From NCBI GenBank assembly GCA_963804085.1, contig CAWDOQ010000022.1, forward strand, positions 1 to 64,000: 64,000 nucleotides of DNA, given 5' to 3'. The first letter of the stretch is position 1; every line of letters begins with the position of its first letter. Positions 22,339 to 63,478 of the stretch are shown here, one piece after another. The DNA is from Chlamydiia bacterium (GTDB taxonomy: Bacteria > Chlamydiota > Chlamydiia > Chlamydiales > Rhabdochlamydiaceae). A program made the position numbers and the translations under genes. The notes below the pieces were generated by a model. The model saw nothing but the letters and a program-made list of their open reading frames with translations. It had not been told where the DNA came from and did not search any database.

Positions 22339-22500
22339 AGGCCCGTAAGAGGAATGGACTGAAATGGACAGGAAACGGACCAAAATGGACGGAAAAAGGA
22401 CGCGGGCCTAAGAAAGAAATTGTCCATTGGGGCTGTCCATTTTTTGTCCATTCCTCTTATCGTCCATTTTCGTCCATTAAGCCCCCGTCCATTGTCCATT
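22339..22500. repeat. GGAC/GTCC iterated imperfect hairpin element E1
   Basis: Five GGAC units on the left arm and seven GTCC units on the right. Shares aggcccgtaa and cgcgggcctaaga with E4. Confidence 0.88.
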
Positions 22501-22586
22501 TCTCTAATCCCCTGCAAACCTCCAAATTGGTCGACAACCGCTTCATGAAGCTTTAGCACTTGTTGTACGGTCAAGAACTTTATCAC
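22500..22586 (-). pseudogene. N-terminal remnant of a Doc/Fic toxin
   Basis: MIKFLTVQQVLKLHEAVVDQFGGLQGIRE is a typical Doc start. Homology ends where element E1 begins. Confidence 0.8.
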
Positions 22587-22702
22587 TTCTTGGCGAGCCT
22601 CTTGAGCATCGGCGCTTGTTCAACGAGGAATTTTTTCAACACCTTATCAAACTCTTTCTTGCTAGCATCCTTCTGCTGCTTCTTGCGTGATGGTTGATTC
22701 AA
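22583..22702 (-). pseudogene. Short antitoxin or antitoxin remnant upstream of doc
   Basis: ...KKEFDKVLKKFLVEQAPMLKRLAKK* with a GTGA overlap onto the doc start. The LKRLA tail is typical of Doc-associated antitoxins. Confidence 0.5.
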
Positions 22703-22769
22703 ATTTGGCAAATGCTCAATACCCAATTGTTTTGTTTACCTGAATTTTTGCTGTATCGCCGTAAATACG

Positions 22770-23933
22770 TCAAGAAAGATAGAGCAGGAGGCTCTTCAGG
22801 TAGTGGCCTTCGGGGTGGTAGAGGGAGAGCGGGTGGTCGAATGCGTTCTGATGACGGGCAAGGATCTTGGCTGTGCGGCCGGCTTCTAGCGCTGCTTGGA
22901 AGAGCAGGTTTTGAAAGAGGGCCTCATCTATGTGGTGCGAGCAGGAAGAGGTGAGAAGTAGCGAGCCTGATGGCATTTTCTGCATGGCAAGTCTGTTGAT
23001 CTCTTTGTAACCTCTGCAAGCGTTCATCACATCGCTCCTCTTTTTTGCAAAGGCGGGAGGATCGAGGATCACGAGATCAAAAGGAAGGGGCGACTCTTTT
23101 AGATAATCAAACACATCTCTTTTTACACTCGTATGACGCTCTTTTGCAAACCCATTTAGCAGGCAGTTTCTCTCGGCAAGTGCAAGTGCGTCTGGGCAGA
23201 TATCCACAGATGTGGCAGATTGGGCGCCTCCTTTAAGAGCCGCAAGTGAAAAGCCTCCGGTGTATGAGAAGCAGTTGAGCACTCTCTTATCTTTTGCGTG
23301 ACGCATCACAAATCCGCGCATCTCTCTCTGGTCAAGAAAAAAACCGGTCTTCTGCCCCCCTTCCGGTCTGACTAAAAATTTGATCCCGTTCTCAACGATT
23401 TCGATTTCGTTCACCTTCTCGCCATACAGGAGCTTTTCGGAACTCTCCAACCCCTCCTGCTCGCGCGCTCTTCCTTGTGATTTCTCATAGATGCTGCCGG
23501 GTGATAGGAGCTTCACCAAAATCTTTACGATGCTCTCTTTTAGCCTCTCTATTCCCCATGTGCTAGCTTGCAAGACAACCACTTTCCCGTAGATGTCGAC
23601 CACAAGGCCCGGGATGCCATCCCCTTCTGCATTGATGAGGCGATAAGCTGTGCAACCTTTTGGCAAAAGTTTTTTGCGTAGCTCAAGGGCCTCTTCAAAG
23701 CGCTTTGCTAAAATCTGCAAAATGGGTCTATCTTCGAAGCTTAAGACGCGTCCTGCAATCGAGTTTGTAGGATGAAAGTAGGCTTGTGCCAGAAACTTTC
23801 CGGAGGCGCTTTGGACAGCCAGGATATCGCCGGGCGAGCATTCGGGCATCGATGCAATGGCTCCAGAAAATATCCAAGGATGCTTTTGCAGAAGAGGCTT
23901 TTCTTTATCTGGCTTTAAGATAACACTTTTCAT
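22770..23933 (-). CDS. rlmI: RlmI-like 23S rRNA m5C methyltransferase (PUA + SAM domains)
   Basis: HPWIFSG, EGDGIPGLVVD, GQKTGFFLDQR, LDPPAFAK, YLKSL. Confidence 0.9.
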   Translation of the reverse strand: MKSVILKPDKEKPLLQKHPWIFSGAIASMPECSPGDILAVQSASGKFLAQAYFHPTNSIAGRVLSFEDRPILQILAKRFEEALELRKKLLPKGCTAYRLINAEGDGIPGLVVDIYGKVVVLQASTWGIERLKESIVKILVKLLSPGSIYEKSQGRAREQEGLESSEKLLYGEKVNEIEIVENGIKFLVRPEGGQKTGFFLDQREMRGFVMRHAKDKRVLNCFSYTGGFSLAALKGGAQSATSVDICPDALALAERNCLLNGFAKERHTSVKRDVFDYLKESPLPFDLVILDPPAFAKKRSDVMNACRGYKEINRLAMQKMPSGSLLLTSSCSHHIDEALFQNLLFQAALEAGRTAKILARHQNAFDHPLSLYHPEGHYLKSLLLYLS

Positions 23934-62006: not shown

Positions 62007-62492
62007 TTGGGAGGCCTCATGGCTGAAGAAAGCAAACCCTATCTTAAGTATGCCGATGAGATTATACACACCTTTGAAAAGGAGTGTGTAAAAGAGTTCA
62101 AAGAGTTCAAGCTCCGTAGTATCGGCAGTGGGGGTCGAATGCCAAATGATGTCGAAGAAATCGGTGTGAATTTTTCTGCTTACGAACCCGCGACCATTGA
62201 AGAAGCAAGAGCATTAGAGGTGACTCTTACCGAAAAGCTGCTAAAAAAAATCAACGCTCATGAAAAAATTCGACCTTATCTTCGTGAGTATCCTTTTCCG
62301 TCCAATCGGACAGAAGTATCTGTCTCTTTTCACAAACGCAATGGCGACTATTACACCGACGGCAGTGTGGCTTACGTCTCTCATATCCTAAACCAAATCA
62401 GCTACTGTGCAGCCGATCCCAAAACCCAAGATTTTATAGATCTGTTGGAAGAACCTTACGAAGATGCTGTCAAGCTTGTCCACCAGAAGTGA
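62007..62492 (+). CDS. Putative Rhs immunity protein 1 (signal-peptide part from ATG 61964 is out of frame)
   Basis: Immediately downstream of the toxin tip and a close paralogue of 62632-63165. Confidence 0.7.
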   Translation: MGGLMAEESKPYLKYADEIIHTFEKECVKEFKEFKLRSIGSGGRMPNDVEEIGVNFSAYEPATIEEARALEVTLTEKLLKKINAHEKIRPYLREYPFPSNRTEVSVSFHKRNGDYYTDGSVAYVSHILNQISYCAADPKTQDFIDLLEEPYEDAVKLVHQK

Positions 62493-62600
62493 CCTCTTTT
62501 TTGGAGTGCTGCGACTTGTCGCTGTTCTTCAAAAGACGCCGAGACAAGTCTCGGCGGAGAAAAGCTGCACAAGTCGCAGCACTCCATACCGGAATCGCTT
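62488..62600. repeat. REP-like nested hairpin R1 (TGGAGTGC...GCACTCCA)
   Basis: Outer stem tggagtgctgcgacttgt/acaagtcgcagcactcca, inner stem cgccgagac/gtctcggcg. Confidence 0.88.
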
Positions 62601-62631
62601 CACTCTTTATCGCCACAACATGGGTTTTACA

Positions 62632-63165
62632 ATGATGTTGTTCTTTAACCCAGCACTTTTCATCTATTTTTTCTTCTTTGGAGGCCTCATGGCTCAAAAA
62701 GAAGGCCCGCTCTACATTCAGCATGCCGATGAAATTATACACTCGTTTGAAAAGGAGTGTGTGAAAGAGTTTAAAGGATTCAAGCTCCGCAGTATCGGCA
62801 GTGGAGGTGGATTTGCACATGATGTCGAAGAAATCGATGTGAAGTTTTTTGCCTATGAACCTGCGACCATTGAAGAAGCAAGAGCGTTGGAGGTAACTCT
62901 TACAGAGAAGTTGCTAAAAAAAATCAACGAACATGAAAAAATTCGACCTTACCTGCGCGAGTACCCTTTTCCATCGAATCGAGCAGAAGTATCTGTCTCT
63001 TTTCACAAACGCAATGGCGACTATTACACCGATGGAAGCGTGGCCTACGTCTCTCAAATCCGAAATAAAATCGGCTACTGTGCAGCCGATCCCAAAACAG
63101 AAAAATTTATAGATCTATTGGAAGAGCCTTACGAGGATGCTCTCAAACTTGTCCAGCAGAAGTAA
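62632..63165 (+). CDS. Putative Rhs immunity protein 2 with signal peptide
   Basis: MMLFFNPALFIYFFFFGGLMA, then a body nearly identical to protein 1 (HEKIRPYLREYPFPSNR). Confidence 0.72.
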   Translation: MMLFFNPALFIYFFFFGGLMAQKEGPLYIQHADEIIHSFEKECVKEFKGFKLRSIGSGGGFAHDVEEIDVKFFAYEPATIEEARALEVTLTEKLLKKINEHEKIRPYLREYPFPSNRAEVSVSFHKRNGDYYTDGSVAYVSQIRNKIGYCAADPKTEKFIDLLEEPYEDALKLVQQK

Positions 63166-63478
63166 GAGCGCTTAACGGACGAAAACGGACAAGTAAGAAA
63201 AACGGACGAAAATGGACGCGCGATCATGTTGCTCGAGCCAATCTCTTGGGCCCCCTTCAGTGGCGAGTTAGCCGAGATAAATACACAATGCGGCACGACG
63301 TAGAACGTCCCTTACATGAGGAGAATCTCCTCCGATAAAACGGAGGAGTTCTTCAAACGGACAATCGCCATGAAGGAAGTTTAAGCTAGTTCTCTTGGGC
63401 ATCCCGTCCGTTCATGTCCATTGCACGTCCATTTTGGTCCGTTGTCCTTGTCTTTCTGTCATTGGGGCCCGTCCATTG
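63165..63478. repeat. GGAC/GTCC hairpin element E6 (E5-like arms with ~150 bp extra DNA in the loop)
   Basis: Left arm gagcgcttaacggacgaaaa...aaatggacgcgcg, right arm tagttctcttgggc...gtccattgcacgtccatttt...cattggggccc. Confidence 0.85.

Follow-up and report, generated by a model that had tools for sequence, protein, structure and literature searches.

Inverted GGAC arrays in the window and the genome

The 64,000-nucleotide (nt) stretch analyzed here, called the window below (C22:1-64000), comes from a 2,133,167-base assembly of a Chlamydiia bacterium (GCA_963804085.1; 24 contigs, 91% complete, contamination figure of 4.97%). It contains six long hairpin elements, E1 to E6, each composed of two inverted arrays of short YGGAC units around a loop. 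The elements and the open reading frames (ORFs) that neighbor some of them are as follows.

22339-22500: E1, subfamily B1; left arm of five AYGGAC-type units (22356-22401), then 20 nt to the first of seven GTCC units (22422-22497); between convergent ORFs
32276-32390: E2, GTGGAC/ATGGAC type with 9-nt spacing; arms at 32276-32314 and 32342-32380; between divergent ORFs
39901-40080: E3, subfamily B3; left arm of six ACGGAC-type units (39910-39977), right arm of seven GTCC units (40005-40075); between divergent ORFs
46621-46808: E4, subfamily B1; six units in each arm (46639-46708 and 46745-46797)
56321-56490: E5, subfamily B2 with the loop reversed; five units in each arm (56332-56385 and 56427-56477); upstream of the Rhs gene at 56557-61146
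63165-63478: E6, B2-like by eye and not assigned by the classifier; four units (63177-63217) and five units (63406-63447)
63218-63405: the 188 nt between the arms of E6, comprising the remains of its own loop and a copy of an unrelated second small repeat

All six elements had been listed in a preliminary description of this stretch, and all were recovered, with left arms of 4 to 6 GGAC units and right arms of 5 to 7 GTCC units. The pattern GGAC-N5-7-GGAC-N5-7-GGAC has 20 matches in the window, every one of them within the six elements, compared with a mean of 0.01 and a maximum of 1 in 100 dinucleotide-preserving shuffles. The 27-bp perfect stem attributed to E2 is present as a perfect 27-nt run within 39-nt arms that are 90% complementary (alignment read by eye), and the GGGCC-type motifs said to lie near the arm ends are visible there as GGGCC/GCGCC boxes. 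The unit spacing, given earlier as 8 to 15 bp, requires correction to mostly 9 to 11 nt: spacings of 9, 10, or 11 nt account for 173 of the 235 intervals in left arms and for 179 of the 256 in right arms, as counted genome-wide over 55 paired rows (54 distinct elements, with one locus entered twice). The exceptional length of E6 is due to the insertion of the second, unrelated repeat in its loop.

Outside the window, a scan of the assembly for clusters of GGAC and then of GTCC brought the total to 54 distinct paired (GGAC)n-loop-(GTCC)n elements in approximately 2.13 Mb, and GGAC precedes GTCC in all 54. A further 18 arms of at least four units are unpaired, including one or more truncated copies (C22:86780-86872). 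In 28 of the paired elements the units are mainly GTGGAC, typically at 9-nt spacing, and in the other 26 they are A(C/T)GGAC, typically at 10 to 11 nt. The loops, which fall into rough classes (12 elements in A1, 10 in B2, 7 in B1, 5 in B3, 3 in A2, and 17 not assigned), are conserved within each subfamily and are present in both orientations; A1 also has terminal inverted repeats of about 23 nt. A miniature element consists of two arrays and a loop of 16 to 44 nt. The three-unit GTGGAC pattern has 81 matches in this genome. Of 30 related genomes, all from other genera, 28 have none, and the remaining two have one match each, in a plain tandem repeat. A backwards control pattern (CAGG with a 9-nt period) has 21 matches in the window genome, all on one strand, which probably represent a coding 9-nt tandem repeat. 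No Rfam family matches the window at the gathering threshold, nor does a tRNA gene occur there. The earlier proposal of a structured, multicopy family is borne out.

The arms have a strong potential to pair. Among 52 elements, the median predicted fold energy is -75.0 kcal/mol, compared with -47.3 kcal/mol for shuffled sequences (z = -7.0), and a median of 83% of the GGAC core bases pair with GTCC cores in the predicted folds. In the A1 consensus fold, only the hexamer cores are paired, and the 3-nt spacers remain open. Two-sided changes affect 0 of 29 pairs in A1, 4 of 45 in B2, 2 of 32 in B1, and 1 of 66 in B3, as against 0 to 2 in slid controls, and most pairs never vary. Spacer complementarity within and between elements (0.81 versus 0.78 and 0.77 versus 0.74) gives no evidence of element-specific compensatory evolution. 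Frames that stay open across the arrays are uninformative, as stop codons are absent from most frames there.

The hairpins are predominantly intergenic, with 46 of the 54 overlapping no called ORF, and they lie close to the 3' ends of genes. The gap to a neighboring 3' end has a median of 31 nt and is 20 nt or less on 25 of 58 sides, and that to a neighboring 5' end has a median of 107.5 nt and is within 20 nt on 4 of 48 sides. At least one neighbor is a gene 3' end in 41 of 54 elements. Convergent neighbors are overrepresented, flanking 17 of the 52 classified elements compared with 342 of 1,940 intergenic regions genome-wide, and divergent neighbors flank 12 of 54.

According to the preliminary description, every copy adjoins an orphan, effector, toxin-antitoxin, or Rhs gene, and the hairpins mark accessory-gene boundaries as part of an effector-shuffling system. 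The first statement holds roughly within the window, given that a Pfam family is lacking for 8 of 12 flanking ORFs, but not across the genome, where ORFs without a Pfam family (E value of 1e-5 or better) make up 41 of 99 flanking ORFs and 35 of 100 control ORFs, the controls being drawn from ten partly hand-chosen 20-kb stretches (150 drawn, 100 scanned). These counts contradict the second statement as well, as do the many housekeeping neighbors: hairpins adjoin rpoC, dnaB, two tRNA synthetase genes, the genes for RNase R, PNPase, and ribosomal protein L9, smpB, clpP, tgt, and miaA. In this organism, the hairpins are therefore unfit as markers of effector or accessory islands.

Several other features of the locus and genome were recorded alongside the hairpins. 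The second small repeat is about 100 to 180 nt long, forms its own short hairpin (ctcctccgt...acggaggag), and has BLAST matches on at least seven contigs; in addition to the copy at 63218-63405 of the window, it occurs at C17:89427-89604, C10:62807-62936, C7:2996-3093, C16:101326-101422, C2:121767-121895, and C2:99829-99939, and it lies within the loop of a GGAC hairpin twice (E6 and C17:89376-89645). The Rhs-repeat gene at 56557-61146 encodes 1,529 amino acids and is followed by small ORFs without a Pfam family, the locus being bracketed by the B2-type elements E5 and E6. The 250 nt preceding E6 are 88% identical to window positions 62242-62490, indicating tandemly duplicated modules in the Rhs tail region. 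The genome also encodes a 25-member paralogous family that includes F-box-like proteins (e.g., C10:137600-138565 and C12:26480-27550), expansions of leucine-rich-repeat, ankyrin, and Ser/Thr kinase proteins, Legionella_OMP-type porins, and a TLC ATP/ADP translocase, a gene content typical of an amoeba-associated intracellular bacterium, probably one related to the chlamydiae.

Association of the arrays with TIGR04258 genes

The suggestion in the preliminary description that four-helix-bundle or GxxExxY genes might co-occur with the hairpins proved decisive: in other genomes, the same arrays bracket or interrupt genes of the TIGR04258 family. A palindromic pattern of two GTGGAC units, 30 to 34 nt, and two GTCCAC units, for which approximately 0.04 chance matches are estimated in a 596-Gb species collection, occurs there in at least 116 stretches from many phyla. 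Among the matches listed are stretches from Acidobacteriota, Chlorobiaceae, Lentisphaerae, Hydrogenedentota, Desulfobacterota, Brocadiaceae, Nitrospiraceae, Clostridia, Chlamydiales, and others.

Eighty of these stretches were examined as loci, and in a dozen, the array sits at one fixed place inside a conserved coding sequence, where it is translated in frame as a Gly-rich and then Ser/Thr-rich linker. Nine of 10 such array-holding frames match PF05635, the 23S rRNA intervening sequence (IVS) protein, and all 4 of the frames tested match both TIGR04258 (67 to 76 bits, with a cutoff of 40) and TIGR02436. A profile built from the array-holding proteins detected 18 of the 80 loci, two of which were dropped because only their low-complexity linker matched. 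In 12 of the 16 loci retained, the array lies in the linker of a TIGR04258-type gene, and in the other 4 the gene is within about 150 nt of the array.

The association also holds when the gene is the starting point. Of 25 loci found via the gene alone in a 300-genome sample of the phylum, 18 have arrays of at least three exact GGAC or GTCC units no more than 300 nt away, compared with none in the 44,747 bp that make up the remaining flanks of the same loci. The other seven show mostly degenerate arrays by eye, some with a CGAC core. The usual layout is (GGAC)n-gene-(GTCC)n, with the gene in the position of the loop, and complete gene-less hairpins beside a gene are also seen. The gene is present on 1 of 72,556 plasmid records and on none of 50,697 phage records.

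Genes and arrays likewise coincide at the level of whole genomes. Of the 300 genomes sampled from the phylum of the window genome, 19 have the gene, and 16 of these carry a four-unit nonamer pattern on both strands; among the 281 that lack the gene, 4 do so. Within the taxonomic family of the window genome, the gene is present in that genome and in 1 of 62 others, and the same two carry arrays on both strands. Moreover, the subtype of the protein corresponds to a single base of the unit: proteins with a GGFTERLY ending accompany TGGAC units at all 13 loci, and those with a GGLRERM ending accompany RGGAC (A/G-GGAC) units at all 8.

Gene copies and the encoded protein

Six matches to PF05635 occur in the window genome, two of the suffix type (TIGR04258) and four canonical.

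C7:~1487-2338: TIGR04258 copy, frameshifted, running directly into an A1 hairpin
C19:~346205-346800: TIGR04258 copy, frameshifted, running directly into a B3 hairpin
C10:17646-17957, C7:6846-7157, and C10:160339-160650 (L153, L154, and L156): canonical PF05635 genes with units of CGCGCCCG plus 4 nt, GTGCCC hexamers, and CTGTGC hexamers

In both suffix-type copies, the TIGR04258 match is split between frames, indicating that the genes are frameshifted. Each of the three canonical genes examined, out of four, is bracketed by inverted arrays of other units.

The contigs of the two decayed copies have a 6.3-kb stretch in common (C7:4898-11202 and C19:339640-345937; 98.4% identity), which may be a recent segmental duplication or derive from a second strain in the assembly. 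At the junction with the decayed copies, the TIGR04258 genes are only 75 to 78% alike and the hairpins belong to different subfamilies, and the contigs become highly identical again precisely where the hairpin ends on its outer side. Since gene and hairpin differ where the flanks match, the two behave as one replaceable block.

Relatives of this protein form pentamers. The structural model of an intact homolog (predicted local distance difference test score [pLDDT] of 93; predicted template modeling score [pTM] of 0.86) has its best fold matches in the S23p-family structures 2gsc (Foldseek E value of 0.016; template modeling score of 0.87 over the target) and 2rld (E value of 0.13), and a sequence search of the PDB with the protein profile returned nothing better than an E value of 0.21. 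As the alignment reads, the suffix domain probably supplies the last long helix of the bundle, in which case the array-holding linker of the proteins from other phyla would be a surface loop. Each of the 24 aligned proteins is basic (isoelectric points of 9.0 to 10.8).

Four soil-metagenome runs yielded only contigs of a relative, with about 4 to 8% of letters different, which end at E3 and E4 and include no empty site. In two soil-metagenome runs, a joint skips window positions 39797-42652 (E3 and a 780-amino-acid ORF without a Pfam family) and has 25 to 34 other letters instead; with only 20 to 23 letters on its shorter side, this joint gives a weak hint of a variable locus. A metagenome scan with the DsbH-like neighbor of E3 reached a best identity of 57% and no close relative. 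In a genus with four gene-bearing genomes, divergence leaves only fragments at 65 to 96% identity, and no empty site was found among them.

Origin of the hairpins and comparison with known systems

We favor the view, at a probability of roughly 0.7, that the hairpins are ORF-less derivatives, similar to MITEs (miniature transposable elements with inverted repeats), of an IVS-like TIGR04258 cassette. This cassette, found in many bacterial phyla, comprises a gene for a small, basic four-helix-bundle protein (NCBIfam TIGR04258, "four helix bundle suffix domain"; S23p/Avd fold) that lies between two inverted YGGAC arrays of about 9-nt spacing or holds them in a linker predicted to lie at the surface. 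Linkage, charge, fold, and the match between subtype and unit all suggest that the protein reads these units, which it might bind as duplex or folded-back DNA or as RNA. Binding of the units could help the cassette to persist or spread, and the ORF-less copies could have multiplied in trans, as MITEs do. The copies would settle immediately 3' of stop codons, at positions that tolerate a long hairpin, and could function there as a 3'-end structure. Given the frameshifts in both cognate genes, the family is probably no longer active in the window genome. A broader proposal, which we regard as less likely than not, is that cassette and hairpins represent a widespread mobile or self-propagating class whose only gene is a helix-bundle protein that reads its own arm units and that moves without a known transposase, recombinase, or reverse transcriptase, the rRNA IVS being one special case.

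Several results weigh against the derivation from a TIGR04258 cassette. Four genomes of the phylum sample (G190, G250, G286, and G141) contain arrays, yet none of the four matches the protein profile, and the arrays in such gene-less genomes can be numerous (91 and 71 pattern matches on the two strands of G250; 39 and 45 in G190). Arrays can therefore exist without the gene, and they either outlive it or need none. The AYGGAC subfamilies have 10- to 11-nt spacing, as opposed to the 9-nt arrays that most often lie beside genes. The both-strand criterion has some background, since about 17 of 301 genomes have the backwards control pattern, too, on both strands, usually with few matches, and relatedness among the sampled genomes causes the two-by-two table to overstate their independence. 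Physical linkage of gene and arrays means that the match between subtype and unit could reflect shared descent alone. In addition, no insertion event was caught, and no paralogous empty sites were found within the window genome. Direct repeats of at least 10 nt flank only 2 of the 54 elements (15 and 10 nt), as in 2,000 random controls, at a resolution that does not extend to target-site duplications of 2 to 4 nt.

Of the other explanations, the one that ascribes a benefit to the host is improbable on its own terms but compatible with a cassette origin. It holds that the hairpins are useful 3'-end structures, acting as terminators or mRNA stabilizers as repetitive extragenic palindromic (REP) sequences can, and that the link to the helix-bundle gene is only historical. 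Their closeness to stop codons, the excess of convergent neighbors, and the length and predicted stability of the hairpins, which remain although both cognate genes are broken, are all as this explanation would have it. However, 12 of the 54 lie between divergent genes, no general U-tract follows the hairpins (by eye, in the window elements and family sequences), and compensatory changes are few. The confinement of the GTGGAC form, which was not found in 28 of the 30 related genomes of other genera, argues that it is not a conserved regulatory device. A role as multivalent RNAs that sequester CsrA, which the preliminary description had raised from the A-N-GGA motif in the units, is the least probable of all: no csrA gene was found (0 matches in this 91% complete genome), and the GGA motifs lie within stems, where most of the GGAC core bases are predicted to be paired. 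CsrA sites are single-stranded.

Movement by some resident enzyme raises the question of which mobility genes this genome contains. A Pfam scan of the 34 larger ORFs of the window agrees with the earlier statement that neither a transposase nor an integrase is present there, and genome-wide searches for five families (Y1 transposase, DDE transposase, rve integrase, tyrosine recombinase, and reverse transcriptase) are consistent with it; they detected, elsewhere in the genome, one Y1 transposase, two copies each of an rve-type insertion sequence (IS) and a DDE_Tnp_1 IS, and three tyrosine recombinases. An IS110 transposase gene, noticed in passing outside these searches, lies 1.1 kb from one hairpin, and every other mobility gene is at least 8 kb from the nearest hairpin. 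No mobility gene found, whether of the five families or IS110, is linked to the hairpins. The window genome has no detected reverse transcriptase, which argues against a retroelement route.

It is accordingly quite unlikely that a resident DDE-type IS, IS110, or Y1 transposase of the type associated with REPs (RAYT-like) mobilizes the hairpins in trans as classical MITEs or REPs, even though candidate enzymes are present, both IS types have CTGGACA within their terminal inverted repeats, and A1 has terminal inverted repeats of its own. Neither IS terminus stands at the start of the hairpin ends, a search for target duplications found none, and in other phyla the same arrays accompany the helix-bundle gene. 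The description of the hairpins as a MITE family nonetheless stands in a loose sense, as nonautonomous miniature copies of a larger cassette; the target-site duplication and cognate transposase that the term implies were not found. The idea of REP-like elements served by a RAYT fails on the organization of the Y1 locus. The single-copy, IS200-type, RAYT-like Y1_Tnp gene (C17:57827-58168; 150 amino acids) is flanked by its own inverted repeat of about 100 nt (C17:57656-58436, or L029 1330-2110; arm pairs of 63 nt at 97% and 24 nt at 100%), which recurs at C19:164-166 kb, C2:164 kb, and C16:88-90 kb and bears no relation to the GGAC hairpins. The Y1 locus looks like a small system of paired REPs and their transposase (REPIN-RAYT) apart from the GGAC family. 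Still less credible are attC-like recombination sites that shuffle effector, toxin-antitoxin, and Rhs cassettes, as first envisaged. The orphan-rich flanks in the window, the Rhs locus bracketed by two hairpins of one subfamily, and the different cassette types at one site in the C7/C19 junction would fit such a role, but orphan ORFs are not enriched genome-wide, many neighbors are core genes, and no case was found of gene cassettes exchanged exactly between hairpin pairs. Moreover, the two attC end boxes, RYYYAAC and GTTRRRY, are both present in only 1 of 54 elements, and where a tyrosine recombinase shares a contig with a hairpin, the two are at least 11 kb apart.

If the hairpins derive from TIGR04258 cassettes, inverted pairs of YGGAC arrays would be best annotated as cassette remnants and not as terminators, integron sites, or small-RNA genes. 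The four-helix-bundle "23S rRNA IVS" proteins form a very large family without an established function, and the origin and spread of the IVSs is an old open question. The window genome presents the gene-less side of this question, with dozens of copies, several subfamilies that are diverging from one another, and a protein whose subtype follows a single base of the unit. The amplification is large, at about 54 copies in 2.1 Mb, with spacings of 10 to 11 nt as well as 9 nt and both parent genes decayed. In the literature searched, as far as the sources could be viewed, no description was found of YGGAC arrays or of their link to the TIGR04258 family.

Three known systems resemble these elements in part. 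The ends of Tn7 and Mu and the subterminal repeats of Ac/Ds are repeated transposase-binding sites, and the GGAC hairpins, too, are built of short, similar units that resemble binding sites, several to each of two inverted arrays; unlike them, however, the hairpins have no transposase, and the two arrays with their short loop constitute the whole miniature element. Bacterial MITEs and REPs or bacterial interspersed mosaic elements, as reviewed in PMC3184786, PMC10969869, and PMC2817692, share with the hairpins a small size, an intergenic location, palindromic structure, multiple copies, restriction to lineages, and a lack of coding capacity. The GGAC hairpins differ from both in that no target-site duplication, matching IS or RAYT, or GTAG/CGTC tag was found, and in that their parent element encodes a helix-bundle protein, not a transposase.

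The closest likeness is to the 23S rRNA IVS, a long hairpin whose larger form carries a four-helix-bundle ORF. Forms of the 23S rRNA IVS without an ORF exist as well. In the report on the Coxiella burnetii 23S rRNA IVS (PMC4990558), this long hairpin is regarded as selfish, and its larger form has an ORF for the four-helix-bundle protein S23p (PF05635) between the stem arms. Whereas an IVS lies inside a 23S rRNA helix and is removed from the rRNA, the GGAC hairpins are situated between protein-coding genes, in a window without any Rfam match. Four to eight short units make up each arm, the YGGAC core being fixed and the spacers free; the associated protein is of the split "suffix-domain" subtype TIGR04258, and the ORF-less copies number in the dozens per genome.

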